Source: Candidatus Undinarchaeota archaeon | Lineage (GTDB): Archaea; SpSt-1190; JASMDC01 | Direction: 5' to 3' | DNA length: 64,000 bases | Assembly: GCA_964519305.1 (NCBI GenBank) | Contig: CAZFHY010000017.1 | Coordinates: 17,577-81,576, forward strand | Part shown: in pieces, positions 2,513 to 18,091 of the stretch | Layout: each line of letters begins with the position of its first letter | Position numbering within the stretch: the stretch's first letter is position 1 | Notes under the pieces: model-generated | What the model saw: only the letters and a program-made list of their open reading frames with translations | Databases searched by the model: none | What the model was told of the DNA's origin: nothing | Translations under genes and position numbers: made by a program

Positions 2513-3253
2513 TCAAGGCAGGAGGAACGACATCTCCGTGGCGACCATGTCATCGGAGAGCTTCTCCAATCGCTCGATCGATCCCACGTCGTACCAGAAC
2601 TCGTTGGTGAGATACCCGCGGACCTTCCCGCCTTCCTTGATGAGCTGTGGGATGAGATGTGCGTTCAGGTCCAGCACACCGTCCGGGTCCGTCCGCTTGT
2701 CGGCGAACGCTGCCGCACGCACGATGTAGACCCCGATGTTCACTGGCATATCGATCCGGGGCTTCTCCCGGAACCCATTGATCGTGGTCAGAGGCCCGTC
2801 CGTGTCGGTGACGTCCGCCACGCCCACGGGGACAGGGAAGTCCCTGGCCAGGGCGAGGGTCACATCGGCCCCTGCCTCCCGGTGGAGCGCCATCATCCTG
2901 CCCAGATCGATGTTCGAGAGGATGTCGCCGTAGAATATCACAACGTCCTCGTCCCCCGCGGCCAGTAGCGCGGGGAGCACGGCGTTGCCCGTGCCCTTGA
3001 GGTCCGGCTGGTCAAGATGGTAGCTCATGCGAGCCCCGAACCGCGAACCGTCCTCGAAGTAGTTAGTGATCTGCTCGGCGTGCGCCCCGACGAGCACGTT
3101 CACATCGCAGATACCATGGTGGCAAAGGAGCCTGACTATGTACTCCATCAGTGGTTTGCCCTGACGCCCCAGGGGCATCATGCATTTCTGGAAGTAGAAC
3201 GATAAGGGCCGGAGACGGGTGCCTTCGCCGCCTGCGAGCACGATGGCCTTCAT
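2513..3253 (-). CDS. NDP-sugar pyrophosphorylase / nucleotidyltransferase family
   Basis: MKAIVLAGGEGTRLRPL, KGTGNAV, YGDI, FREKP, WYDVG. Confidence 0.93.
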   Translation of the reverse strand: MKAIVLAGGEGTRLRPLSFYFQKCMMPLGRQGKPLMEYIVRLLCHHGICDVNVLVGAHAEQITNYFEDGSRFGARMSYHLDQPDLKGTGNAVLPALLAAGDEDVVIFYGDILSNIDLGRMMALHREAGADVTLALARDFPVPVGVADVTDTDGPLTTINGFREKPRIDMPVNIGVYIVRAAAFADKRTDPDGVLDLNAHLIPQLIKEGGKVRGYLTNEFWYDVGSIERLEKLSDDMVATEMSFLLP

Positions 3254-3284
3254 GCGTAGGGAAGGGCGGCCGAGTTTTAAATTC

Positions 3285-4517
3285 CTATGCAGACCTGTCG
3301 CGAGGCTCGCCGACCATCCATGGCCTGGTGCCCCGGAGATAGGCAAGGACCGCTAGCATGGTCAGGACGACCGCGAGGATGGCCGGTCGGGGAGAGTACC
3401 ACCGTCGCGCGCGGAGCGCGTACACGGTACCGTCCAGTGAGCCGATAATGATGAGGCCGTCAGACATAGCAGGGGTGACGCTCGCGGGACCGACGGAACC
3501 GGTCCGGCCCTGCAGAGCCCCTGTCCGTGCACCGATCACGTGGAGCTCACCCAGCTTCGAGCTCGCATAGACGGTCCCGTCCGCGATTGCGGGGGGCGCG
3601 TCAACTGCGCACTCCATCTCGCGTTGCCACAGCTCGTCCCCCGTCGACGCATCGAGGGCGTACAGGATACCACCGCTCGAGCAGGAGTACACGATCCCGT
3701 CCGCCGCGGTAGTGGCGCCTGCGGCACCCGCCAGTTCGTGTTCCCATCGGAGCGCACCGGTGCCCATATCAAGAGCGTACACCCGCCCGTCCAACGAGCC
3801 TATGTAGACTGTCCCGTCCACTATCGTGGGCGAGAACCAGTTGGACCCCGAGGTCATGGTCCGCCAGAGCTCGCGACCGGTCCTTGCCTCATGGGCGTAG
3901 ACGTACGCGTCGCTGGACCCGGCAACGACGGTCCCGCCGGCCACGGCGACGGGGGCACGAACGGGTCCGCCCATCAGAACGGTCCACCGCTGTGTACCGT
4001 TCCCCGGATCGAGAGCGAGGAGCCGGCCTGAGTTCGTGCTCACGTACACAGCGTCGTCGGTAGCCTGTGGCGCGGGCAGTTCCGAGGGTTCGTCGGTAAA
4101 GACCCTCCACCGACGCTCTCCCGTGCTCGCGTCCAGTGCATGCACGTGCATGTCCTGAGAACCGACGACAACGAGCCCGTCGGCAACAGCGGGCGAGGAA
4201 TGGTGCAGGAATCCCTTGGTCCGGAACGTCCATATCGGCGTACCGGTGAACTTGTCGAGGGCATAGAGATGCTCATCCGCAGCGCCAACGTAGACGATGT
4301 TCCCTGCTACGACGGGCGTTGTGGTGACCGGGGCCCCCGTCCTGAACGTCCATGCCAGCTCTAGGTCGCTCCCGGGACCACCAGTGGTCGCTCCCGTGTT
4401 CCTCACGTCATTTCTGGGCACGGGCCAGTCCGCTGCGATAACGAAGGCCATGACGAGCAGTACCGTCAGGATGACGAGAATGCCACCGGACCTGTTCGCT
4501 CGCACCACAACACGCAC
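3285..4517 (-). CDS. secreted, membrane-anchored PQQ-like beta-propeller repeat protein
   Basis: Signal peptide, repeated VY.GS.DG.VYALD..TG...W blades, C-terminal TM helix. Confidence 0.88.
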   Translation of the reverse strand: MRVVVRANRSGGILVILTVLLVMAFVIAADWPVPRNDVRNTGATTGGPGSDLELAWTFRTGAPVTTTPVVAGNIVYVGAADEHLYALDKFTGTPIWTFRTKGFLHHSSPAVADGLVVVGSQDMHVHALDASTGERRWRVFTDEPSELPAPQATDDAVYVSTNSGRLLALDPGNGTQRWTVLMGGPVRAPVAVAGGTVVAGSSDAYVYAHEARTGRELWRTMTSGSNWFSPTIVDGTVYIGSLDGRVYALDMGTGALRWEHELAGAAGATTAADGIVYSCSSGGILYALDASTGDELWQREMECAVDAPPAIADGTVYASSKLGELHVIGARTGALQGRTGSVGPASVTPAMSDGLIIIGSLDGTVYALRARRWYSPRPAILAVVLTMLAVLAYLRGTRPWMVGEPRDRSA

Positions 4518-5683: not shown

Positions 5684-6562
5684 ATGGTCGATGAGAGGCT
5701 CGTGGTATCCGTGGTCCAGCCCGTTCTAGAGCGGGGCGGTGACCAGAACCTCTCCCGCATCGTGTCCCTTGTGAAGAAGGCCACCGCCACCGGGCGTACT
5801 GATGTCGTTGTGCTCCCCAACCACCTGACACGCTCGGCCCCCGTCTCCCTCCCCTGCGAGCTGACCGACGCGCTGGCCGACCTCGCGCGGGACAATCTCA
5901 CAGCGATCGTGGGCGCTCTCCCGGAACGGACCGAAGAGTGTGCGTACAACACCGCATTCATCATCGGGAGCGATGGGCGGCTCATGGGCGTCCAGCGTAA
6001 GTTCATGCTCTCTCCTGTCGAGGCGTCTTCGTTGCGCCCGGCCCCTTCGGTGCGGGTGTTCGACACCGATGCCGCACGCTTCGGTGTCGTGGTCGGTGAG
6101 GACATCCTCTTCCCCGACTTCTCCCGGGTCGTCGGGCTCTCCGGGGCCGAGGTCGTGTTCTGTCCCTCCCTGGTCGCAGGCGAGCTCGTCCGCAGCCTGC
6201 GTACGGCCTGCTGCATCCGGGCGTTCGAGAACAGGATGTTCGTGGTGAACGCTAACGGCATCCCCGGCGAGGTCCGCACGACCAAGAGCCCCCGGGGACA
6301 GAGCACCATCGCCACACCGTACGTGGGCGACAACCTGCTGGCCAAGGGCCTTGCGAAGGAGGGCATCATCACCGCCGAGCTGGACCTGGCACGCTACCGT
6401 GAAGAGAAGGCCAGACCACCGGAGGCCCCCGGGAAACGCCGTGGACGGCGACGCAAGTACCGACTTGGACCGGACCCGCACAGGTGCCTTGAGCTTCTGG
6501 GCAGGGTGGGGCTCGAGCTAGAGGTCGAGATACGCTCGGTGAAAGGTGCGCCCGAGGAGTAG
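5684..6562 (+). CDS. carbon-nitrogen hydrolase (nitrilase) fold protein with degenerate active site
   Basis: YNTAFIIGSDG, QRK, IRAFENRMFVVNAN, GQSTIATP; catalytic Glu and Cys positions replaced. Confidence 0.85.
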   Translation: MVDERLVVSVVQPVLERGGDQNLSRIVSLVKKATATGRTDVVVLPNHLTRSAPVSLPCELTDALADLARDNLTAIVGALPERTEECAYNTAFIIGSDGRLMGVQRKFMLSPVEASSLRPAPSVRVFDTDAARFGVVVGEDILFPDFSRVVGLSGAEVVFCPSLVAGELVRSLRTACCIRAFENRMFVVNANGIPGEVRTTKSPRGQSTIATPYVGDNLLAKGLAKEGIITAELDLARYREEKARPPEAPGKRRGRRRKYRLGPDPHRCLELLGRVGLELEVEIRSVKGAPEE

Positions 6563-6603
6563 GGAAGGCCCCGGTGGGACCGGGACCATCCTACCCGTGA
6601 CCG

Positions 6604-6900
6604 TTACCTGCGCTTGGCCGGCCCCTTGAGGGCCGTGAGGATACGCTTCCGCCTAGTGGCGGGTTTTTTCGCCCTCTTGGCGGTCCCAATGCGCTTGGCA
6701 AGGGCCTTGTTATCGAGGCAGTAGGCTGCCCATACTGCAAAATCGTTGAGGTCTTGTCGGAGGTGGTACTCGATGGCGTCATCGTCCACCCCCTCCACGA
6801 GCTCTGCGAACTCGTTGACGGTCCGCGCCCGGCCCACCTCCGTAGCGGGATCGGTGCGGAACACGAACTCTTGTCCTGGGGGTACGGCTTGTCGTCCCAT
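6604..6900 (-). CDS. DUF5752-like small protein
   Basis: EFVF...ARTVNEFAELVEGVDDDAIEYHL...NDFAVW...LAKRI, with a basic tail. Confidence 0.7.
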   Translation of the reverse strand: MGRQAVPPGQEFVFRTDPATEVGRARTVNEFAELVEGVDDDAIEYHLRQDLNDFAVWAAYCLDNKALAKRIGTAKRAKKPATRRKRILTALKGPAKRR

Positions 6901-7273
6901 TGTAGACTGAATGGGTCGTTTCATGGTTTAAAAAACTACTATTTTATTAATAGTTATTAGGTGTTACTTAGGGTTGCGATACTGATCCATAAGCCCGTTA
7001 ATTTTGGCAATCGCGTACAACGTTTTTTCAGAAATTATCTGACAGGACCGCAGCAGGGTAACGTGCGGTATTATAAAGCATGAAACGAATTTCCTTGCGA
7101 TGCGTTCTTTCAGGGGGATCGCTCACGGAGTAGCCCGTGCTCTCATCTCCACCGGGATGGTGAGCCACGGTATCCTGGGCGACTGCCAACGGGTGTACGG
7201 TGACCTTCTCGTGCTCACGGGCGGGGTCATCGGTCACAGGTTCGGTCACCCTGATAATCACGCGGAACCTGTT

Positions 7274-8221
7274 TCAGAGCTGCTCCCTGAGCGTTTCGAG
7301 GACTGAGCCCGACTCGCGGTCCCGCGCGTTGACCACCTCGGTGGTCCCGCCATGTACCGCAAGATCTCCCAAGAGCAGTGAGAGCAGCCGTACGGCGTTG
7401 CGGGGCGTGTCGTCCACTAGTCCCTCGCGCCCGCGCCGGCGGACGACCTCGTCGGCATGGTCGAGGAGCGCATCTCGGTCCGGTTCGGTCCCCTTTGGCA
7501 GGGCAGGGATGCGGACGACCGTCCCTCGCTCCCAGTCGACCCGTACCAGGGACGTCTCCACATCGATCTCGCGCGGTTCGAGAGCATCCACCATGTCCGC
7601 GTCCGGATCGCGATAGTCCCTGGCGAGCTCCGCCTCAAGGGCCGCGATGAGCCCGAGACCGCTCCGGAGCACGGCGATGTGGGCAGGTCCATCGATGGAC
7701 CGTGCTGTCTCCACCACCCTGCGAAGGAACCGCTCCCTTAGCGGAGGGTCTGCCACGGTCTCACCGATGAAGGGTAGGGGCTCTCGCTCCCGTGCGGCGC
7801 ACCGGTCGAGCCACTTATGGAGGAAGGGTAGGCCTTCGAGCGAGGCCACGCTGTCGAGCGCGGCACATACCTCGTCCTCACCGACCATGGGACCCTCACC
7901 TGTCCCCGGGCACCTGAACATGGAGACTCGCGGCCTCCCGTCCGGCGTGGCCCAGAGCCTGAAAGGGAAGAGCCTGCAGAGGAGAGGCCGGCCGTCGTGC
8001 ACTCCGCACAGTGGTCCGTCGAGATGTGGGCATCGGAGCGAAGTGAGCGGGACGTAGGAACGGAAGAGCGGATGGGGGCTCGCCAGTCGCCGGAAGGGCA
8101 CACGCTGCGCGTCCTGTTGCGTAAGGTAGAGCCCCGTGAGCTCGGCACAGCACTTCCCGCACCGGACGCACTCGTAGCGGCGCGGAGTGAAGGCCAGATC
8201 GGGTGCGGGTACGGTCCCCAT
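7274..8221 (-). CDS. YkgJ-family Cys-cluster (Fe-S/Zn) protein
   Basis: CVRCGKCC...CPHLDGPLCGVHDGRPLLCRLFPF...CPG. Confidence 0.85.
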   Translation of the reverse strand: MGTVPAPDLAFTPRRYECVRCGKCCAELTGLYLTQQDAQRVPFRRLASPHPLFRSYVPLTSLRCPHLDGPLCGVHDGRPLLCRLFPFRLWATPDGRPRVSMFRCPGTGEGPMVGEDEVCAALDSVASLEGLPFLHKWLDRCAAREREPLPFIGETVADPPLRERFLRRVVETARSIDGPAHIAVLRSGLGLIAALEAELARDYRDPDADMVDALEPREIDVETSLVRVDWERGTVVRIPALPKGTEPDRDALLDHADEVVRRRGREGLVDDTPRNAVRLLSLLLGDLAVHGGTTEVVNARDRESGSVLETLREQL

Positions 8222-8278
8222 CAGGATTGACCATGCATAAAAACCTTAAAAAGGTGGCCTCGCTCTTGAGGCCTGCTC

Positions 8279-9376
8279 ATGGAGGAGTACGGTCGCATTT
8301 GGGAGCTTCCGGACATCGAGCCAAAGAAGGGATTCCGCTGGTGCTGGTGGTTCTGGCTGGTGTTCATCGACAACCCGGTCGACCCCGAGCGGCCCCGCCA
8401 GGTCATGATCCTGTGGAGCTTCAAGGACTCGCCGACCATAATCCACGACACTCACTACCACCCTGGCGAGGGAGTGGCACGTACCGCGGAGAAGGACAGC
8501 TTCCCCGGCGTCATCGCCGCCTGGTACTTCGACGGCGAGGAGATGGACCACGATTTCGCACTGGAGCAGGGTCCTGTCACGGTAGTACGTGAGCTCGACA
8601 AACCGGGGAACGGTCGCCTCTTCATCGACACGCCCACGGGCAACGACTACGTGTTCGAGGGCGCCCCTCGTGACTGGCGGCTGCGCATCAGGAACGAGAA
8701 GCACGACATGGACTACAACATCCGGCTGGAGGAACCCAACGAGTTCACCAGCCCCCTCTACCGTACCAAGCACTTCTTACGTGGACTGTTCATGTACAGC
8801 GTTGTCAAGCTCAACCGCTGCACGATGGAGGGCACGGTGGACGGCGAGAAGGTGACGGGCACGGCCTACCTCCAGCGCATAGGGATGAACAATCCCTGCC
8901 TCCCATGGTTCTGGGGCGTGCTGCACTTCGCCGACGGCTCGATCCTCAAGTACTTCTTCCCTCACGTCTCGACGGCCATCTTCCGTACCGACCCCGCCCA
9001 ACGGATGCCGGGCCACGAGCGGTTGTGGTTCCCGGCAAAGCGCGAGATGGAGTTCTACCACGCGCCAACCGGCACCCTACACAACTTCAAGCGTGGGAAC
9101 GTTGAGCGGCACGACCGCGAGAACGGGATGCCGGTGTTCGACATAACCTTCAGGTCGCCCACAAAGGACCTTACCGTCAGTATCGAGAGCTACGCTCACA
9201 CCCACTGGCGCTTTCGGGGGAAGCATCCTCTCGTCCCTATAAACGACCTCTATTACAACGAGTACCCGGTCAAGGTCACCAATCTGTCATTCACCAGTGG
9301 GGGGCGCGAGGTGACCCTGGCGGACACGGGCCCGGGTGCGGGGAACGCCGAGCACACCTGGGGCGGGTTGTTCTGA
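8279..9376 (+). CDS. hypothetical Trp-rich all-beta protein, possibly AttH/tocopherol-cyclase-like
   Basis: 365 aa with good codon usage; WCWWFWLVF, GTAYLQR...PWFWG, terminal EHTWG. Confidence 0.75.
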   Translation: MEEYGRIWELPDIEPKKGFRWCWWFWLVFIDNPVDPERPRQVMILWSFKDSPTIIHDTHYHPGEGVARTAEKDSFPGVIAAWYFDGEEMDHDFALEQGPVTVVRELDKPGNGRLFIDTPTGNDYVFEGAPRDWRLRIRNEKHDMDYNIRLEEPNEFTSPLYRTKHFLRGLFMYSVVKLNRCTMEGTVDGEKVTGTAYLQRIGMNNPCLPWFWGVLHFADGSILKYFFPHVSTAIFRTDPAQRMPGHERLWFPAKREMEFYHAPTGTLHNFKRGNVERHDRENGMPVFDITFRSPTKDLTVSIESYAHTHWRFRGKHPLVPINDLYYNEYPVKVTNLSFTSGGREVTLADTGPGAGNAEHTWGGLF

Positions 9377-9414
9377 GCGGGGCCGAAGTGCTCAATTTAT
9401 AATGTTTAGGCCAT

Positions 9415-9735
9415 GTGGTGACCATCGTGGCCAAAGAGCATCAGTTCAAGGAGATCGATATCGAGCTGCACATCTGCCTGCCCTGTCTGGATAAGGACAA
9501 GGTGCACGTGGAGTTCAGGGACGTCAAGGGCGAGGAGTGCCCCTTCTGCAAGGGCCCGCTCACACGCATAGGCCACACGCGCTCCCTTGACGGTGTGTAC
9601 GAGCGCCTCTACATCTGCCCCGAGTGCAAGGAGTGCTACAAGGTGGACAACGACGGCGACTACCTTCACATGGGCAACGCCTTCACCGAGTGGTTCCTCA
9701 AGATCTTCGGCGGCCATGGCGAGAAGGTCAAATAG
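9415..9735 (+). CDS. Cys-rich zinc-binding protein
   Basis: CLPC, CPFC, CPECKEC; TATA (TTTATAA) at ~9397-9403. Confidence 0.8.
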   Translation: MVTIVAKEHQFKEIDIELHICLPCLDKDKVHVEFRDVKGEECPFCKGPLTRIGHTRSLDGVYERLYICPECKECYKVDNDGDYLHMGNAFTEWFLKIFGGHGEKVK

Positions 9736-9749
9736 ACAGGTGAGACCGC

Positions 9750-10010
9750 ATGCCCCCGCCCCTGGAGGCCGACAAGGAGACCTGGGAGTTCGAGTGGAAC
9801 CCCAAGCGGCGCTTCGAGGAGTACTGCAAGCTCATCGAGGATTATAATCTCCTCCGCAAGCGCAACAAGGAGCTCGAGGTCAAGTACGAGGAGATGAAGC
9901 AGCTCATGCTCGAGCTGCGTGAGCAGGTGGAGAAGGGATCCAAGGACCAGCGGAAGCTGTTCGACCGGCTCAACGCCATCAAGACCATCGCCACGCCCAA
10001 GGACGTGTAG
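9750..10010 (+). CDS. small coiled-coil protein
   Basis: Heptad-like E/K/L pattern; strong GC3 codon bias; GGTGA upstream. Confidence 0.75.
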   Translation: MPPPLEADKETWEFEWNPKRRFEEYCKLIEDYNLLRKRNKELEVKYEEMKQLMLELREQVEKGSKDQRKLFDRLNAIKTIATPKDV

Positions 10011-10016
10011 GCGACC

Positions 10017-10496
10017 GTGCGCGAGTTCCGCTACGCGGGCTGGCGACGTGATTCCGTGTTCGTCCTGGTCATGGACGCCGTCATCCTCCCACCGCTCGTC
10101 GGCCTTTGGGGCGAGGTCCCCAAGACGCTGGGCGGAGTGCTCTTCTTGGTGATGATGACCACGTTCTTCGGCGGCCTCTGCTATGTTATAACCGACACGA
10201 TCAGAAAGTACCGTGGGATGAGTCTCGTACTTGATGATGAGGCCGTCGCGCTCGTCCTGCCCGGACCGAACATTGCATTACTGAACGCCAGTGTGGACCT
10301 CCCACCCGGGCCGTGGCGTGTGCGCTTTACGGACATACGGACCGTCGAACGGACCTCTCGCTTGTGGTCGTCACGGAAAGCAGGCAAACTGGAGACCCTC
10401 CGTATCGTCGACCGGGAGGGCAACGTCCACGAGCTGTCCCGGCCCTTCGAGGACCGGATCGACGAGATGGTAACTGCCATCAAGGGCCGCCTTTGA
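10017..10496 (+). CDS. hypothetical 2-TM membrane protein with C-terminal beta domain
   Basis: Two hydrophobic helices followed by a PH-like VRFTDIRTVE segment. Confidence 0.6.
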   Translation: MREFRYAGWRRDSVFVLVMDAVILPPLVGLWGEVPKTLGGVLFLVMMTTFFGGLCYVITDTIRKYRGMSLVLDDEAVALVLPGPNIALLNASVDLPPGPWRVRFTDIRTVERTSRLWSSRKAGKLETLRIVDREGNVHELSRPFEDRIDEMVTAIKGRL

Positions 10497-10565
10497 ACAA
10501 CGGTCGCTGGCGGTGGGGTGCGCAGGTTCACAGGCCTGACGCCGGGGGAAGATCCCGGTCCTTCC

Positions 10566-11363
10566 TCATACCTTCCTGCCGATGATGCCCAGGTGGCCGG
10601 CAGCCCCGACTATCGACGGCTCGGTGCAGTAGCGCAGCTCCAGCTCGACGATGCGCTCGTACAGTTCCCGGTCCGCGAGCAGCCGCTGGGCGTCAGCCTT
10701 CCCGAGCTTGTCGGCGATGACGTGCATGCCGAACACATCAACGACCTCGAGTCCATGACGCCTGAAGAGCGCCTCGAGCTCCCCGACCCGGAAGTTGTGC
10801 TGCGGGAACTCCATGGGGAAACGTGTCCGTCCCGTGCGCTCAAGCCGGTCCAGTTCCTCGAGCCGCTGCTCACGCACGATCTCCACCATCTGATGGAAGA
10901 ACGAGTCCACGGTGGCCATTACAGGCGCGCCGCGCTTCGCCACGCGGGATAGTTCGCCCATCGCCGCGTCCTTGTCTGTGCAGTAGGAGACGGGATCCCC
11001 CAGGGAGATGACGAGGTCGAAGGAGTCGTCGTCGAGCGTCCCCATGTCACAGATGTCCAGCTGGAGGATGGTGATCCTGTCCGCGAACCCGAGCGCCTCG
11101 ACCTTCTTGCGCGCGACATCGAGCATCCCCGTGGAAAGGTCGGTGAGGATGACGTCGTACCCCTTCTGCACCAGCTCGATGGCGAACTCCCCGGTCCCCC
11201 CTCCTGCGTCCAGGGCACGACCGCCCTTCGGTGGGAGGAGGGGTCCGAGCCTCGACCACTCGACACGGCGGGCGATGTCCCAGTAGCGGTCGTCGTAGGT
11301 GTCGTCGTACGCAGCGGCCTGCTCGGAATGGGATTGGGCCGCAGGGGATTCTTCCATCACCAC
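10566..11363 (-). CDS. class I SAM-dependent methyltransferase
   Basis: ALDAGGGTG, DLSTGML, DDSFDLVI. Confidence 0.9.
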   Translation of the reverse strand: MVMEESPAAQSHSEQAAAYDDTYDDRYWDIARRVEWSRLGPLLPPKGGRALDAGGGTGEFAIELVQKGYDVILTDLSTGMLDVARKKVEALGFADRITILQLDICDMGTLDDDSFDLVISLGDPVSYCTDKDAAMGELSRVAKRGAPVMATVDSFFHQMVEIVREQRLEELDRLERTGRTRFPMEFPQHNFRVGELEALFRRHGLEVVDVFGMHVIADKLGKADAQRLLADRELYERIVELELRYCTEPSIVGAAGHLGIIGRKV

Positions 11364-11369
11364 GCCCCC

Positions 11370-11873
11370 CTACAACCGTGCCCGCAGGGTGTACTGCCAG
11401 GGCAGGAGGCCCAGCTTGCGGTAGAACTGGACGGCGGGATTATCCTTGACCACGTTGATGGTGATCTCGGTGGCGCCCCGGGCACGGGCGTCGGCGATGA
11501 ACGCGCGCACCAGGGCCGAGCCGATACCCCGGCCGCGAAGGGTGGGCTCGACGTAGAGCGAGTCCACGTGCGCCACCGTCCCGCGCCGCACTGGGTCGTT
11601 GGCGATGAGGTACCCGAAGACGTATCCCACATGCTTCCCGTCGTAGTCGGCCACGATGACGTTGCGGCAGTCCGTGTTCATGTGGCCACGTACGTGACGC
11701 TTGAACGTGGCCAGCGCGTCAAGGTCGGTGCGGGTGGTCTCGGAGTGGACCGGCAGCTCAGCGATGCGTTTCCACAGCCAGCTGATGAACTCGACATCGG
11801 TCTCCCGGCCGTATCGGAGCTGGACCCGTGGACGCTCAAGGGGAGCGCTCACCGTGGCGGCACAGATGTCCAC
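11370..11873 (-). CDS. GNAT family N-acetyltransferase
   Basis: LYVEPTLRGRGIGSAL, NPAVQFYRKLG. Confidence 0.9.
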   Translation of the reverse strand: MDICAATVSAPLERPRVQLRYGRETDVEFISWLWKRIAELPVHSETTRTDLDALATFKRHVRGHMNTDCRNVIVADYDGKHVGYVFGYLIANDPVRRGTVAHVDSLYVEPTLRGRGIGSALVRAFIADARARGATEITINVVKDNPAVQFYRKLGLLPWQYTLRARL

Positions 11874-11966: not shown

Positions 11967-12206
11967 ATGGAGGAGATCGGGACCCGGGTCACCATCAAGC
12001 CGCACATGGTGCGGTGGTCGCTCGACGGCACCCTCACGTTCTCGTCCGGAGGTACCTACCCTGTGCGTGCCGGCTCCATACGCGAGATCAGGGAGGCCGT
12101 GGTCCGGCGCCAGGCCGAGGAGATGGAAGGGCTGGAAGAGCGACAGCGTGAGCTTCGGCGCGAGGAACTGCGCGCGTCCCGGCGACGACGGCGCGCCGCC
12201 CCGTAG
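11967..12206 (+). CDS. hypothetical small protein with Arg-rich coiled tail
   Basis: 79-aa ORF filling the gap between the GNAT and the dehydrogenase. Confidence 0.45.
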   Translation: MEEIGTRVTIKPHMVRWSLDGTLTFSSGGTYPVRAGSIREIREAVVRRQAEEMEGLEERQRELRREELRASRRRRRAAP

Positions 12207-12239
12207 GGTATAAAAATGTGAACGCGCTGCCCGCGCCAC

Positions 12240-13724
12240 ATGACGATCGATACGCAAGCGCTCATCAAGGGAATTCTCGATGGCACATACGCCGTCTCCA
12301 TCCATGGACAGGGTTACGTCGGCATCCCCCTGGCGGCGCTGCTCGCGAAGCGGGGTGTGCGGGTCATCGGTGTCGACATCGACGCCTCCAAGGTTGACCG
12401 CCTCAACCGCGGTGAGTCGCCCGTGGACGAGCAGGACCCCAACTCTGTGCTCGAGCACGGCGCCGAGCGGTCGGAGCACAAGTGCGTCATCGACGGCATC
12501 GAGCTCTTCGTGTACAAGGGAGTGGTGTTCTGCCCCACATGTCTGCGCACCTACCGCATCACTGACGGTATCCCCGTCCTGACACAGGAGACCGTGGAGC
12601 TGCCCGCGCTGGCCACCGTGGACGACTACCTGAAGGAAGGATTGGCCGCGGGTAACTACCGCGCCACCCTGGACGCAGAGGGGGCCGTACGTGAGTCGAA
12701 GGTCCACATAATCACGGTCCCGACGTTCGCCGACTCCTACGAGCCGGTGCTCGCTGTGGCACGCGCCGTCGGCGGGTCGCTCGACGAGGACGGCCACGTG
12801 ATCATCAACAAGTCCACGGTCCCCGTGGGTGCTACTGACGAGGCGGAGGCCATCATCCGCTCGCTCACCGACCATGAGTTCGGGATAGTGCATATGCAGG
12901 AGCGCATCGCCGAGGGCCGGGCGCTCAAGGAGTTCCAGGACATCCCCCGCACCGCCGGAACCCGTGATCCGGAGGCCGGGAAGGTCGCCAAGGCGCTGTT
13001 CGACAGCCTCGGTTCGCCGGTGTACCTCTTCGACGATCCGCGGATCACCGAGGCCAGCAAGATATTCGAGAACGCCTACCGCGACTGCAACATATCCATC
13101 GCTAACGCGTTCGCCATATACTGTGAGAAGAAGGGCCTGAGCGTGTACCAGGTCATCGCGGCGGCCAACACCAACATCAAGACCCGGATATTCCAGCCCG
13201 GGATGGTCGGCGGGCACTGTCTCCCCGAGGACACCTACTACGTGGCCGAACCCATCAAGGACCTCGAGACCAAGAACACCATCATGGCAGGCCGCAAGCT
13301 CAACGAGTGGGTCCCCGGCCACCTGGTCGACCTGCTGGAACAGGGTCTCAAGAAGACGGGCAAGGGGCTTGCGGGCACCACCGTGTGCATGCTGGGCCTG
13401 GCGTTCAAGGGGAACACCGATGACACGCGCGAGAGCGGAGCGCTAATCATCGCTGATATGCTGGCCAAGCGCGGTGTCAAGGTGCAGATCCATGATCCAT
13501 GGGTGCCCGAGGCGGTCGTCGCTGAGCATGGTCGCCCCGTCGGTGTCGGCGAGGCGCTGAAGGCGGACGCTCTCCTGGTGGCCACCGAGCACACCCAGTT
13601 CTTCACCTTCCCCTACCGCGAGGCGTGGGCAAAGGTGGTCGTCGACGGTCGCAACATGGTGCCCCCCGAGGCACTGAAGGGCTCGGGCAAGGAGCTCTTG
13701 CGGTTCGGCGACGGGGCCCCCTGA
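12240..13724 (+). CDS. UDP-sugar 6-dehydrogenase (WecC/UGD family) with inserted Trm112-like Zn domain
   Basis: GQGYVG, TVPT, KSTVPVG, QERIAEG, EASKIFEN, GGHCL, GLAFKGNTDDTRES, VDGRN. Confidence 0.93.
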   Translation: MTIDTQALIKGILDGTYAVSIHGQGYVGIPLAALLAKRGVRVIGVDIDASKVDRLNRGESPVDEQDPNSVLEHGAERSEHKCVIDGIELFVYKGVVFCPTCLRTYRITDGIPVLTQETVELPALATVDDYLKEGLAAGNYRATLDAEGAVRESKVHIITVPTFADSYEPVLAVARAVGGSLDEDGHVIINKSTVPVGATDEAEAIIRSLTDHEFGIVHMQERIAEGRALKEFQDIPRTAGTRDPEAGKVAKALFDSLGSPVYLFDDPRITEASKIFENAYRDCNISIANAFAIYCEKKGLSVYQVIAAANTNIKTRIFQPGMVGGHCLPEDTYYVAEPIKDLETKNTIMAGRKLNEWVPGHLVDLLEQGLKKTGKGLAGTTVCMLGLAFKGNTDDTRESGALIIADMLAKRGVKVQIHDPWVPEAVVAEHGRPVGVGEALKADALLVATEHTQFFTFPYREAWAKVVVDGRNMVPPEALKGSGKELLRFGDGAP

Positions 13725-13854
13725 TACTACTGCTGGTCGTAACGAAGGCACTTAGCCGACGACAGCGTTCACAGGTATCGTGGACCCAGGCCGTCATGTA
13801 TCGTATGTCGTCCTCCCCCGCACAAGATCCGTACCAACCGTGCACCATGTGACC

Positions 13855-13935: not shown

Positions 13936-15177
13936 ATGCAGACCCTTGAAAGCCTCTTCTCGCGTTCAGCACGGATGATGAAGGGATCCGAGATCCGGGA
14001 GCTCCTCAAGCTCACCCAGCGGAAGGAGATCATATCCTTTGCCGGCGGCCTACCAAATCCGGACGCTTTCCCCATGGAGAACATCCACAAGATGATGGAC
14101 CACGTGATGAAGAACCACGCCCGGGAGGCGCTCCAGTACGGGACCACCGAGGGTCACAACAAGCTGCGGCTCGCCCTGGTCCACGGGATGCAGCAGAACT
14201 ACGACGTGACCACGGACGTCCACAACCTGGCGGTCACAACGGGCTCGCAGGAGGCGCTCTATCTCCTGAGCAAGGTGCTCCTCGATCCGGGCGACACCGT
14301 GCTCACCGCAGCGCCCACCTACATCGGCGCCACATCTACCTTCCTTGCGCAACAGGCCAACATCGACTGCATCCCGCTCGATGACCAGGGCGTCCGCGTC
14401 GATCTCCTCGAGGACAAGCTCGAGTGGATGGCACGCAATAAGAAGCTACCCAAGTTCGTCTACCTCATCCCCACGTTCCAGAACCCGTCCGGAGTGACCA
14501 TCTCCCGCGAAAAGCGCAAGCAGATCTACGAGCTGGTGTGCCGCTACAACCTGCTCCTCGTCGAGGACGATCCGTACGGCCTGCTGCGGTACGACGGCGA
14601 TCCCGTGCTCCCGATCAAGGCACGCGACACCGAGGACCGGGTCGTGTACCTGGGCACCTTCTCGAAGATCCTAGCGCCCGGGTTCCGCATCGCATGGACC
14701 TGCGGTCCGGCCGAGCTGCTCAACAAGATGACGCTCGCCAAGCAGGCGGTGGACCTCTGCTCCAACACCTTCGGCCAGTACATCGTGTACGAGGCGATCC
14801 ACCACAACCTACTGTTCCCCCACATCTCGGAGATCAAGCGCATCTACAAGGAGAAGCGGGACGCCATGCTCGCCGCCATGACCGAGCACTTCCCCGACGT
14901 GGCCCGGTGGAACACGCCCGAGGGCGGGCTGTTCATCTGGGTGCGGCTGCCCCACTCGGTCAACACCCGGGACATGTTCCCCAAGGCGGTGGCCAACAAC
15001 GTGGCTTATGTGGTGGGCCAGGCGTTCTACCCGGATGGTTCGGGCTCGAACACCATGCGCCTTAACTTCTCCCACTCGTCCAACGAGCAGATCTGGGAGG
15101 GCATCGAGCGGTTGTCCAACGTCATCCAGCAGGAGCTGGACAAGAAGATAGAGCCCGAGCTCATCCACGTGTACTAG
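13936..15177 (+). CDS. PLP-dependent class I aminotransferase (LysN/Aro8-like)
   Basis: ISFAGGLP, LQYG, PTFQNPSG, EDDPYG, GTFSKILAPGFRI, MRLNFS. Confidence 0.93.
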   Translation: MQTLESLFSRSARMMKGSEIRELLKLTQRKEIISFAGGLPNPDAFPMENIHKMMDHVMKNHAREALQYGTTEGHNKLRLALVHGMQQNYDVTTDVHNLAVTTGSQEALYLLSKVLLDPGDTVLTAAPTYIGATSTFLAQQANIDCIPLDDQGVRVDLLEDKLEWMARNKKLPKFVYLIPTFQNPSGVTISREKRKQIYELVCRYNLLLVEDDPYGLLRYDGDPVLPIKARDTEDRVVYLGTFSKILAPGFRIAWTCGPAELLNKMTLAKQAVDLCSNTFGQYIVYEAIHHNLLFPHISEIKRIYKEKRDAMLAAMTEHFPDVARWNTPEGGLFIWVRLPHSVNTRDMFPKAVANNVAYVVGQAFYPDGSGSNTMRLNFSHSSNEQIWEGIERLSNVIQQELDKKIEPELIHVY

Positions 15178-15235: not shown

Positions 15236-15919
15236 TTATTCCTGCTCTTTGAGCTCGACGGCCCGAGCGACGTTCTTTCCCCTGAAGCTCAGGATTGGAT
15301 GGAAGATGTCGCCCATGTAATCAGGGGTCCCGTCGTACTTCTCCTTGACCTCGCGCAGGGCGCCCTCGATGCCGTTGACGTTCCCGTCCATGCTGAGGAA
15401 GAACCCGACGGTCTCGGAGGGGACATAGACACCGGGGTACCCTGTGGGGTACGTCCTGATGCGCTCGTTGGCCGACACCTCGATACCGTGCTTCTCTGAG
15501 AGCTCGGTGGCGTACGCGGCGAGCTCGTCCATGGTGCCCTCGGGCATGTCGGCGTTGTAGGCGACGTCGAGGTGGCCGTCCATGTCAGCTTCCTTTGCGA
15601 TCACATACGAGGAGAGCCGGAAGCCCTTCCACGATGCGATGGGATGACCCGGGTCGATGGCCGGGTTGGACGGAATACCGTGCTCCTTGGTCTCCTGCAC
15701 CAGGTACTCGGAGGCCGCCAGGACGTCCTTCTCGGACCCCTGGAACGTCACGCCCCTACCGTACTCGCCCACGCGCCGGGCCCAGAGCATTTCATGGTTG
15801 GCATTGACATCGTAGGTCGATTCGATATGGGATAAAGCCTGGTCAATGGCCTCGGAGCGGGCGTCGTAGCCCTCGCTGCCGGGACCACCATAGTACTCGA
15901 AGAGCGCTTCTGCATCCAT
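15236..15919 (-). CDS. unknown-family protein, paralog 1 of 3
   Basis: Shares HPI(A/S)..KGFRLSSYV..KE and HP..SFRGKNVA..VEL with the two neighbours. Confidence 0.88.
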   Translation of the reverse strand: MDAEALFEYYGGPGSEGYDARSEAIDQALSHIESTYDVNANHEMLWARRVGEYGRGVTFQGSEKDVLAASEYLVQETKEHGIPSNPAIDPGHPIASWKGFRLSSYVIAKEADMDGHLDVAYNADMPEGTMDELAAYATELSEKHGIEVSANERIRTYPTGYPGVYVPSETVGFFLSMDGNVNGIEGALREVKEKYDGTPDYMGDIFHPILSFRGKNVARAVELKEQE

Positions 15920-16017: not shown

Positions 16018-16710
16018 CTACTCGCGGTCCTCGAGCTCGACGACCTTGGCGACGTTCTTGCCCCTGAAGCTCTTGAACGGGTGGAGGGGGTCGCTGAGGT
16101 ACTGGGGCTTCTCGTCGAAGTGCTCTCTTGCCTCGCGCAGGGCCGACTCGACGCCGTCGATGTTCCCGTCGAGGCTGAGCCAGAAGCCGATCACCTTGGA
16201 CGGGGGCGGGCAGGCCGGGTAGCCTCCATAGGCGGGTTCGTACCGGTTCTGTGCGGTGGCCTTGATACCGTGCTTCTCGGCGAGACCGGCGGCGTAGGTG
16301 CCCAGCTCTTCAAGCCTTGCCTCGGCGTTCTCGTCCGTGAAACCGGCGTCGAGGAAGACGTCAGCGCCCTTTTCCTTGTCTAGCACGTACGACGATAGTC
16401 TGAAGCCCTTCCACGCAGCGATGGGATGGCAGATGTCGAAGCATGAGTTCCACGGCATGTCGTAGCCCTTGGCCTTGGTCTCGTTCACCAGGTACTGCGT
16501 CGCCTCCAGGACGTCCTGCTCGCTGCCCCGGATCATGATCTTGCGGTCGGAGAACCCGGTGTACGGCAGGAGTACGTCCTGCTGCTTCACGTCGATGTCG
16601 TAGGAGCCGCGCGCTCCCTCGAGCGCGGTGTCGAGGTCACGGTCCAGGGTGTCGTACGCCTCCTGGTCGAGCCCCTGGATGTTGTAGTTCAGGATGACCT
16701 CGGCTTCCAT
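16018..16710 (-). CDS. unknown-family protein, paralog 2 of 3
   Basis: Same two motifs; 3 nt from the stop of paralog 3. Confidence 0.88.
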   Translation of the reverse strand: MEAEVILNYNIQGLDQEAYDTLDRDLDTALEGARGSYDIDVKQQDVLLPYTGFSDRKIMIRGSEQDVLEATQYLVNETKAKGYDMPWNSCFDICHPIAAWKGFRLSSYVLDKEKGADVFLDAGFTDENAEARLEELGTYAAGLAEKHGIKATAQNRYEPAYGGYPACPPPSKVIGFWLSLDGNIDGVESALREAREHFDEKPQYLSDPLHPFKSFRGKNVAKVVELEDRE

Positions 16711-16713
16711 GGT

Positions 16714-17400
16714 TCATTCCTCCCGTTCGAGTTCGACTACGCGTGCCACGTTCTTGCCCCTGAAGCTCCTGATCGGGTGGAGGATGTCGCCGAAGTACTC
16801 CGGCTTGTCCTCGAAATTCTCCCGGAGCTCACGTGTAGCGCCTTCAATGCCGTTGACGTCTCCGTCCAGGCTGAAGTAGAAACCGACGACCTCCGACGGG
16901 ACCGCTACGGGTACGGGGGCCGCGACGGGGTAGACCTTTATGCGCTCCTCGACCTTGACATCGATGCCGTGCTTCTCGGCCAGCTCGGTGGCATAGGCGG
17001 AGAGGTCCTCCATCTTGGCCTCGGCCTCCTTGTCGCTGTAGCCGACGTCCAGGTGGCCAGTGAGACCCTCTTCCTTAGCGAGCACGTACGATGATAGCCT
17101 GAAACCCTTGTAGGCGGCGATGGGATGGAATGGATCGATGACCTTGTTCTCGGGCAACGGATGGCCGTTGTCCTTCATCTCGTTGACGATGTAGCCTGTG
17201 GCCTCCAGCAGGTCCTCCTGGGACCCTCGCAGGATGACCTCGCGGCCGTACGCTCCGACGTGCTGCGCCATCAAGGTGTTGTGCTGGGTCTCGATGTCGT
17301 AGCTCTTGTTCAGCTCGTCAAGGGTGCTGTTGATGTCCTCGTTTCGCTGGTTGTATTCATCGGTCGCACCGTAGAAATGAAGAATGACTTCCGCATCCAT
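16714..17400 (-). CDS. unknown-family protein, paralog 3 of 3
   Basis: Start trimmed to ATG 17400 (MDAEVIL, aligns with paralogs); TATA at 17425-17432. Confidence 0.88.
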   Translation of the reverse strand: MDAEVILHFYGATDEYNQRNEDINSTLDELNKSYDIETQHNTLMAQHVGAYGREVILRGSQEDLLEATGYIVNEMKDNGHPLPENKVIDPFHPIAAYKGFRLSSYVLAKEEGLTGHLDVGYSDKEAEAKMEDLSAYATELAEKHGIDVKVEERIKVYPVAAPVPVAVPSEVVGFYFSLDGDVNGIEGATRELRENFEDKPEYFGDILHPIRSFRGKNVARVVELEREE

Positions 17401-17493
17401 GGGATAACCTAGCTCAACAGGCGGTATATAAACCTTGTCATCACGAGGTAGTAACAAACTAAAAGGTCTCTGCCAAGAACGAGCGGGATATCG

Positions 17494-17542: not shown

Positions 17543-18091
17543 TTATTTCAGGGCGATAAGGATGTCACCGCCGTCCTTGTGGGTGTAGTGGCTGACACGA
17601 GCGCTGAACCCGGCGTCGCGGAACCCGGCGGCGGCCTCGTCCAGGGACTCGCTGTCCTTGTACGTGACCATGGCACGCTGGTAGGGGATGTCGGGGCAGA
17701 AGCTGTCCATACCCTTGAGGTAGCCCTTGGCCGCCTCGGCGATCTCGGAGAACCTCTCGGTGTCCGAGTGGGTAGGCTTACCGGCGTACTCGCTGTTCAG
17801 CTCCACGGTACCGCAGTTGGAATGGGGGTCGCGGTTATAGGCGCTACCGAACTCCTTCATGAGCGCCTCGTGCATGCCCATGTCGTCGGTTGTGACGACA
17901 GCACGCTGGACGAAGTAGGAAGGACCGGCATTATAGGAGGGCGCTTCGGCGTCCTTGAAGTGCTTGGCGAAAAAGCCAGGCTCATGATCCTTCACGTAAG
18001 CATCAAGTGTATCGCGGACGGCATCGTACTGCGACCCGCGGGCCACCATGCCATCGATGTATGCTGCGTCGATTTCCATGCGATCAGTCAC
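17543..18091 (-). CDS. hypothetical acidic protein with internal repeat
   Basis: Good codon bias; QRAVVT / QRAMVT repeat; TATA at 18111-18118; start could be ATG 18079. Confidence 0.8.
   Translation of the reverse strand: MTDRMEIDAAYIDGMVARGSQYDAVRDTLDAYVKDHEPGFFAKHFKDAEAPSYNAGPSYFVQRAVVTTDDMGMHEALMKEFGSAYNRDPHSNCGTVELNSEYAGKPTHSDTERFSEIAEAAKGYLKGMDSFCPDIPYQRAMVTYKDSESLDEAAAGFRDAGFSARVSHYTHKDGGDILIALK

Follow-up and report, generated by a model that had tools for sequence, protein, structure and literature searches.

A probable p27-type ribbon nested in the NAD-binding domain of an archaeal nucleotide-sugar dehydrogenase

We consider a stretch of 64,000 nucleotides from a Candidatus Undinarchaeota archaeon (GenBank assembly GCA_964519305.1, contig CAZFHY010000017.1, positions 17,577 to 81,576), to which we refer as the window; coordinates below are those of the window unless another locus is named. 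At 12240..13724, on the plus strand, lies a gene for a WecC-like nucleotide-sugar dehydrogenase of 494 amino acids, P0001. The nicotinamide adenine dinucleotide (NAD)-binding domain of this enzyme is interrupted by a nested insert, residues 65-126 (12432..12617, plus strand), which AlphaFold2 (AF2) models as a short helix followed by a five-stranded beta-ribbon and which insert-free homologues lack. Comparisons of sequences and profiles indicate that the insert is very probably a ribbon of the p27 type, that is, of the Auto_anti-p27 family (SSSCA1/ZNRD2, PF06677), nested in the dehydrogenase.

The gene is an open reading frame of 494 codons in one frame without stops. All three UDPG_MGDP_dh domains of Pfam, namely the NAD-binding (PF03721), the central (PF00984) and the uridine diphosphate (UDP)-binding (PF03720) domain, score above their cut-offs (120.2, 66.8 and 77.7 bits against 27, 25.4 and 30, respectively), as does the NCBIfam model of the nucleotide-sugar dehydrogenase subfamily, TIGR03026 (307.7 bits against 189.8). 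P0001 falls far below every NCBIfam equivalog: the nearest, NF040825 for archaeal UDP-N-acetyl-D-mannosamine (UDP-ManNAc) dehydrogenase, requires 750 bits and gives 204.6, and the WecC equivalog NF008286 requires 459 and gives 171.3. The best solved homologue, found by phmmer against the PDB, is 4r16_A (E 6e-51).

Enzymes of this family oxidise UDP-(N-acetyl)hexoses with NAD through a cysteine, here Cys327, and the positions of C327, K274 and N278 are the catalytic ones. Across 22 aligned sequences, the glycines G23, G25 and G28 of the GxGxxG dinucleotide-binding motif (G23-G28, 12306..12323, plus strand), the lysine K274 and the cysteine C327 of GGHC (13218..13220, plus strand) are invariant, and N278 is nearly so. 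An earlier note on this DNA, made from the sequence alone, had described GxGxxG and GGHC as intact, and this description holds. The best explanation is that the gene product belongs to the WecC-like branch and presumably works as an NAD-dependent nucleotide-sugar 6-dehydrogenase. With the UDP-ManNAc dehydrogenases (P. horikoshii 4r16, S. aureus Cap5O 3ojl, NF040825) it has in common the three-domain architecture, GxGxxG, the GGHC cysteine and the Lys/Asn positions; where other members read CLPKD, however, P0001 and its close clade read CLPEDT, and they have a shorter loop before GGHC. Given these two differences and a score far below the equivalog cut-off, we leave the substrate unspecified. 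The sequence in question, GGHCLPEDT in the close clade, occupies residues 324-332 (13209-13235) and replaces Lys by Glu relative to the other members. The turn of the catalytic cysteine, residues 324-327, has a predicted local distance difference test score (pLDDT) below 50 in an otherwise confident AF2 model, and together the two observations may point to an altered substrate pocket.

Pfam matches the NAD-binding domain in two separate parts, the later one pairing residues 128-250 with profile positions 52-184; the insert, about 60 residues long, falls between profile positions ~50 and 52. The phmmer alignment places it in the same way, with residues 19-64 of P0001 matching 4r16_A 3-48 and residues 127-475 matching 4r16_A 51-402, such that about 60 residues stand where the solved enzyme has two. 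In the 45 best homologues the insert columns are filled ten times (P0001-P0010) and empty 35 times. The earlier note had placed extra residues in this domain at 12441-12617, or residues 68-126, and we find the full insert to extend slightly further, over ~12432-12617.

Could such an insert be an artefact, whether a chimera of the assembly, a fusion by frameshift, or an intein-like element which the mature protein no longer contains? We find nothing that speaks for it. The reading frame is free of stops, and the same architecture occurs in independent records: in a metagenome-assembled genome of a sister species (L013) and in two metagenome contigs (L018, L019), where the insert is 93% identical. 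The search for other dehydrogenases with the insert, which the earlier note had suggested, also returns 12 further distinct proteins of various origins, 11 of full length (P0003-P0010, P0124, P0145 and P0153) and a 258-residue fragment, P0122. Logan contigs from three runs of two studies, possibly the source samples of the assembly, run through 12100-13800 unbroken, with no joint and not one difference, so that the chimera which the earlier note had allowed for does not appear in them; another run, X9, with a small share of words, covers 12983-13109 only, outside the insert, and none of the listed runs is of RNA. Between the window and the sister species the insert has accumulated 13 synonymous and 5 non-synonymous changes, which gives a dN/dS ratio (omega) of 0.108, compared with 0.071 for the rest of the dehydrogenase gene. 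At the codon level, then, selection on the insert is purifying, and we take the insert to be translated. Moreover, the whole chain folds confidently as one unit in the AF2 model, and we consider an artefact of any of these kinds to be practically out of the question.

The full-length AF2 model, computed from a 22-row alignment, has a mean pLDDT of 91.5, with values of 82-94 over the blocks spanning 61-130; a model of the insert by itself reaches 81.2. In the full-length model the insert is composed of a helix at residues 67-73 and strands at 76-81, 88-92, 95-97, 104-108 and 111-115, and its two ends are joined by a small bridge between residues 65-66 and 125-126. Four sequence elements can be recognised along it. 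The first is a p27-type helix, NSVLEHGA, at residues 68-75 (12441..12464, plus strand), whose G74 and A75 are invariant in the ten aligned inserts and which hhalign pairs with the 'LL.kGA' helix of Auto_anti-p27. There follow a first knuckle, C82-V-I-D85 (12483..12494, plus strand), identified from the alignment, and a second, C98-P-T-C101 (12531..12542, plus strand), part of an F-C-P-x-C that is invariant in the ten inserts. The last is a Trm112-like strand pair, Y105-R-I-T-D-G-I-P-V-L114 (12552..12581, plus strand), recognised by hhalign, by a Trm112 hidden Markov model (HMM) and by a phmmer match to 6zxw_H. Every letter to which the earlier note had drawn attention is present, with CVID at residues 82-85 and FCPTCLRTYRITDGIPVL at residues 97-114. 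In the alignment of the ten inserts, A2, the invariant positions are G7, A8, C15, F23, F30, C31, P32, C34 and R36 (A2 numbering), all of which are fold-determining, while the surface positions, those of the last strand included, vary freely.

In order to ask which family of ribbons the insert belongs to, we compare a profile of the ten inserts with 1.84 billion representative proteins. At E<=1e-3 there are 77 matches. Insert-bearing dehydrogenases account for five of them, and the remaining 72 comprise 70 PF06677 proteins and two Trm112p (PF03966) proteins. Pfam also scores relatives that carry an insert at the same site: three exceed the PF06677 cut-off of 24.1 bits (P0124 with 37.7, P0010 with 29.1 and P0145 with 24.7), three fall below it (P0153 with 23.8, P0009 with 18.4 and P0003 with 15.8), and Trm112p is reported by Pfam for none of these six inserts. 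Both results, the database tally and the Pfam scores, are free of the selection bias that attaches to the following two, in which the set of p27 proteins was drawn from the matches of the insert profile itself and the comparison is thereby biased toward p27. With this bias, hhalign aligns the nine close-clade inserts (P0010 omitted) to p27 domains with a probability of 98.9 and an E-value of 1.6e-17 over 45 columns, which take in the helix, both knuckles and the hairpin, insert columns 2-25 among them; and with the same bias, home-made HMMs score all 13 inserts higher for p27 (26.6-53.4 bits) than for Trm112 (0.3-20.0 bits). The two HMM scores run opposite to each other: no insert scores higher for Trm112 (20.0) or lower for p27 (26.6) than that of the window, and the relatives with four cysteines show the reverse. 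Set against one another by hhalign, the p27 and Trm112 alignments give a probability of 51.

The comparison with Auto_anti-p27 domains, both human SSSCA1/ZNRD2 (6hcz) and archaeal stand-alone proteins, can be drawn element by element. Common to all is an 'LL..GA' helix, after which come C-x2-C, a hairpin some 12 residues long that closes with F/Y-x-G, and F-C-P-x-C. The window insert differs in being nested inside a globular enzyme, in having Asp rather than Cys as its second ligand, and in carrying an extra C-terminal hairpin after the second knuckle; the helical, dimer-forming part of SSSCA1, for its part, is much longer than the insert helix. In the SSSCA1 structure paper, the zinc ligands are given as Cys53, 56, 70 and 73, and the domain is described as dimerising through its helical part (PMC7070046). 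The archaeal genome studied here also encodes a stand-alone p27-like protein of 109 amino acids (L012:1315-1644).

The earlier note had read the insert as a Trm112-like zinc module, and it was right that the insert is a candidate zinc ribbon with a Trm112-like last strand. The window motif C98-x2-C101-x3-Y-R-I-T-D-G-I-P-V-L fits the signature of the C-terminal knuckle and strand of Trm112, and the Trm112 HMM gives the window insert, over 24 positions, its highest score among the 13. When the insert is compared by hhalign with 94 homologues of the genome's own Trm112, the probability is 95.6 and the E-value 1.3e-8, over only 23 columns (insert columns 26-48) that correspond to the second knuckle and the Y-x-I-x-D-G-I-P-x-L strand. 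The best PDB sequence row for the insert is chain H of 6zxw (60 residues, E 0.51, phmmer), an entry which is listed in the AfTrm11-Trm112 paper (PMC7641767). Membership of the Trm112 family, on the other hand, does not stand. The Trm112p profile of Pfam (gathering score 22 bits), against which the earlier note had proposed to check the insert, finds neither the whole protein nor a 75-residue piece at E<=1, and neither of two insert pieces, of 63 and 40 residues, at E<=10, with the reservation that HMMER filters may hide very weak Trm112p matches. Nor is the insert among the ten places found at E<=10 when the whole genome is scanned with PF03966. In Pfam searches with the insert alone the only match is ZNF512_C2HC, at chance level (E 0.07-0.15).

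The likeness to Trm112 is confined to one half of the ribbon. Trm112/UPF0434 proteins (YcaR-like, PF03966) are two-knuckle zinc ribbons of similar size, with the second knuckle and the Y-x-I-x-D-G-I-P-x-L strand in common with the insert; their N-terminal half, however, cannot be aligned with it, and they occur as stand-alone or methyltransferase-fused proteins rather than nested in dehydrogenases. The motif, moreover, is not kept in the insert's own family. DGIP is clear only in P0001-P0004, gives way to ENIP, EGIP, EGFS, NGFA and NGAV elsewhere in the clade, and reads SSGV, SAGV, QFSV or QYGV outside it, while the Trm112 HMM score drops to 0.3-2.6 bits in the four-Cys forms. Therefore, the Trm112 look of the last strand seems to be lineage-specific and not inherited from Trm112. 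Small zinc ribbons should be annotated from motifs with caution, since a different ribbon family can give rise to a Trm112-like signature.

The genome has a canonical Trm112 of its own, a stand-alone protein of 57 amino acids (L001:1483-1656). On contig C1, L002:1468-2346 encodes a protein of 292 amino acids that begins with a Trm112-like ribbon (PF03966, 27.2 bits) and the rest of which we judge by eye to be a methyltransferase. Within the window the only place found by the PF03966 scan is 9415-9735 (plus strand), which encodes 106 amino acids with several CxxC pairs and scores 18.6 bits on Trm112p against the cut-off of 22.

These observations bear on a second explanation of the insert, namely that it is a Trm112-like docking module: its last strand, I111-P112-x-L114, would line up, as in Trm112, with beta-3 of a class I S-adenosylmethionine (SAM) methyltransferase and so tie sugar oxidation to methylation. 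The motif, the hhalign and HMM scores and the 6zxw_H row given above speak for it. According to the AfTrm11-Trm112 paper, the interface of AfTrm112 includes the N-terminal residues Leu5, Leu9 and Ala10 together with Ile50, Pro51 and Leu53 of strand beta-4 (PMC7641767). The insert would mimic only the second of these groups: the Trm112 alignment begins at insert column 26, the N-terminal hydrophobic segment and the Trm112-type first knuckle are not matched by it, and a p27 helix takes the place of Leu5, Leu9 and Ala10.

The gene neighbourhood offers a candidate partner, since class I methyltransferases lie within 6 kb of the dehydrogenase both in the window and at the locus of a relative, L014. 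The one in the window, of 265 amino acids (10566..11363, minus strand; Pfam Methyltransf_25/11/31), is the enzyme to which the earlier note had proposed to couple the insert. This coupling finds no backing in the neighbourhood. The methyltransferase is on the strand opposite the dehydrogenase and beyond a GNAT acetyltransferase of 167 amino acids (11370..11873, minus strand; Pfam), a divergent neighbour which is kept in the sister species; at the sister-species locus L019 it has no counterpart, window positions 6000-11370 being unmatched there, and beyond the GNAT gene stand a PEBP protein and a GH114 hydrolase. At L014 the relative of P0001 is found in a glycan cluster, with four GT2 enzymes, a deacetylase, an epimerase, a nucleotidyltransferase-dehydratase, a YfhO-like membrane protein, a radical SAM enzyme and a methyltransferase; the latter is 27% identical to that of the window over 124 residues, that is, the two share a generic SAM fold only and are not orthologous. 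Considering also the decay of DGIP among the relatives, the missing Trm112p match, and the genome's own Trm112 and its probable Trm112-methyltransferase fusion, we consider a docking module of this kind highly improbable.

A variant of the same idea starts from the p27 ribbon itself, which may in this genus have converged on the methyltransferase-binding I-P-x-L strand of Trm112 and stand in for Trm112 from within the sugar dehydrogenase, bringing a class I methyltransferase to it. Because the Trm112 HMM score is highest in this lineage (20.0, compared with 0.3-2.6 bits in the deeper branches), we keep the idea in view, with very little weight. If true, it would be the first Trm112-type activation outside translation-related methylation.

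We now turn to the metal site and the history of the insert. At the second ligand position of the first knuckle, P0001-P0009 and the fragment P0122 have Asp, and P0010, P0124, P0145 and P0153 have Cys; the latter four, deeper-branching relatives keep C-x2-C ... C-x2-C, like human SSSCA1. The ligand candidates in the window insert are C82, D85, C98 and C101, and the p27 pattern of four cysteines is accordingly incomplete. We infer a single change from Cys to Asp, kept thereafter, and hence a Cys3Asp metal site. In a tree from which the insert columns are left out, a single change of state suffices for the 13 insert-bearing proteins, and the Cys-x2-Asp proteins, nine in number (P0001-P0009), form a clade with support 100.

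The architecture is found in two of the 17 genomes of the phylum, both of one genus, at two further loci among the GTDB species genomes, and in five representatives of the library of 1.84 billion proteins; it is kept across lineages with only ~38-57% identity. Two other candidates, L015 (Bacteroidales; a 13-residue match, E 1e-3) and L020 (40% over 26 residues), we treated as chance or unexamined and left out. The genome that contains the window measures 3.63 Mb (99.8% complete, 4.3% contamination) and its congener 3.8 Mb, compared with 0.6-1.2 Mb, three to six times smaller, for the other 15 genomes of the phylum; either the lineage is unusually large for its phylum, or its placement deserves a check.

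Several observations weigh against the p27 assignment and the interpretation that we build on it. The window's own insert has no PF06677 match in Pfam, as part of the whole protein or in pieces, so its membership rests on profile-profile comparison, which carries the selection bias noted above, and on positional homology with its relatives. Structure does not come to its aid. The six best Foldseek rows for the insert-only model (E 0.14-0.69, probability 0.66-0.95) are 2jny, 2hf1 (two chains), 2pk7 (two chains) and 2jr6, which we take to be bacterial UPF0434/Trm112-like proteins (PF03966), although the entry titles do not say so, and not SSSCA1; these rows also count in favour of the docking module. 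SSSCA1 (6hcz) is found at E 1.4-1.5, with 6hcz_A at an E of 1.5, a root-mean-square deviation of 0.8 A over 32 columns and a TMq of 0.50. When VIA-align compares the model with 48,161 chains, all rows have Z<=3.0, and 2jny (2.9) and 6hcz_B (2.8) are tied among unrelated folds; a look-up of residues 64-127 in the ESM Atlas gives no usable match. Structure search cannot, on these models, separate p27 from Trm112, and the matches fit two related two-knuckle ribbons rather than membership of Trm112. Furthermore, one canonical zinc ligand is absent and the metal site is predicted only. The branch that unites all 13 insert-bearing proteins has support of only 65, so that a single origin of the insert is allowed, not shown. 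Finally, a scan of the window for glycan genes finds only a nucleotidyltransferase, at 2513-3346, and no cluster.

With these points taken into account, the explanation that we favour, with moderate confidence, is that a p27-type ribbon is nested in a surface loop, where it probably serves structure or contact between proteins. The nested Auto_anti-p27 ribbon would have been gained by an ancestor that a small archaeal clade shares, at the turn on the surface that links helices two and three of the Rossmann domain. With its two ends joined by a bridge of two residues, the insert would form a self-contained knob on the NAD-binding domain, made up in order of the short 'LL..GA' helix, the knuckle Cys82-x2-Asp85, a hairpin, the knuckle Cys98-x2-Cys101 and the final hairpin. 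In the sub-clade of the window one zinc ligand would have become Asp and been kept, the Cys3Asp site holding the ribbon together. The knob would probably stay outside catalysis and might instead present a zinc-stiffened contact surface, either for self-assembly of dimers or for docking of a partner from the glycan pathway, the setting in which the relative at L014 is found. Since the invariant positions are fold-determining and the surface is variable, the module would be a contact or stabilising one and not a catalytic one. As to whether protein contact, rather than mere structure, is its role, we consider the chances evenly balanced.

The same pattern of conservation also suits a more modest explanation, in which the ribbon is a tolerated structural decoration of a permissive loop, kept since its removal would destabilise the fold, and without any partner or regulation. 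The variability of the surface and of the last strand speaks for it, as does the rarity of the architecture. Selection on the insert, by contrast, is about as strong as on the rest of the enzyme, and the insert persists across quite divergent lineages; these two facts also fit a functional surface, and low omega and persistence do not separate the one from the other. We regard mere decoration as unlikely, though as deserving clearly more weight than either of the methyltransferase readings.

A further conceivable role is that of a metal or redox switch, in which thiol oxidation or loss of zinc at the Cys3Asp site would unfold the ribbon, disturb the NAD-binding helices and thereby tune activity. 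The position of the ribbon, right between two helices of the Rossmann crossover, would suit such a switch, and a Cys3Asp site should be more labile than a Cys4 site. The deeper-branching relatives, however, keep the plain Cys4 site, and we give a switch about as little credit as the docking module.

Literature searches on Trm112 or zinc ribbons with nucleotide-sugar dehydrogenases return no description of this architecture, and one on archaeal SSSCA1 yields the SSSCA1 paper alone; it is a new domain architecture, which combines a known enzyme with a known orphan ribbon. The Auto_anti-p27 domain (SSSCA1/ZNRD2) has no known molecular function, and the SSSCA1 structure paper reports the domain only next to disordered regions (PMC7070046). 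Its nesting in a well-understood enzyme, under purifying selection, therefore offers a tractable setting, with a simple activity read-out, for the role of the fold in metal binding, oligomerisation or partner docking. The wider impact is modest, as only a few archaea, none of them cultured, carry this rare architecture.

Some further features of the neighbourhood are of interest in their own right. In the sister species, an IS605-type TnpB (OrfB_IS605 with a Cas12f1-like TNB, 378 amino acids) stands between the GNAT gene and the dehydrogenase (L013:44-1180, L019:3409-4545), at a place where the window has none. Just downstream of the dehydrogenase, at 13936-15177 on the plus strand, is a class I/II aminotransferase that scores best on MocR/PdxR-type models; because the match starts at profile position 91, it lacks the DNA-binding N-terminus of MocR/PdxR. 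This gene is syntenic in the sister species. Beyond it are three tandem paralogues, all on the minus strand (15236-15919, 16018-16710 and 16714-17457), which encode acidic proteins of 227-247 amino acids and are ~66-71% identical in DNA sequence; the first two, which were the ones scanned, have no Pfam family. A fourth protein without a family, at 17543-18091, lies beside this array of paralogues, and the array is kept in the sister species.

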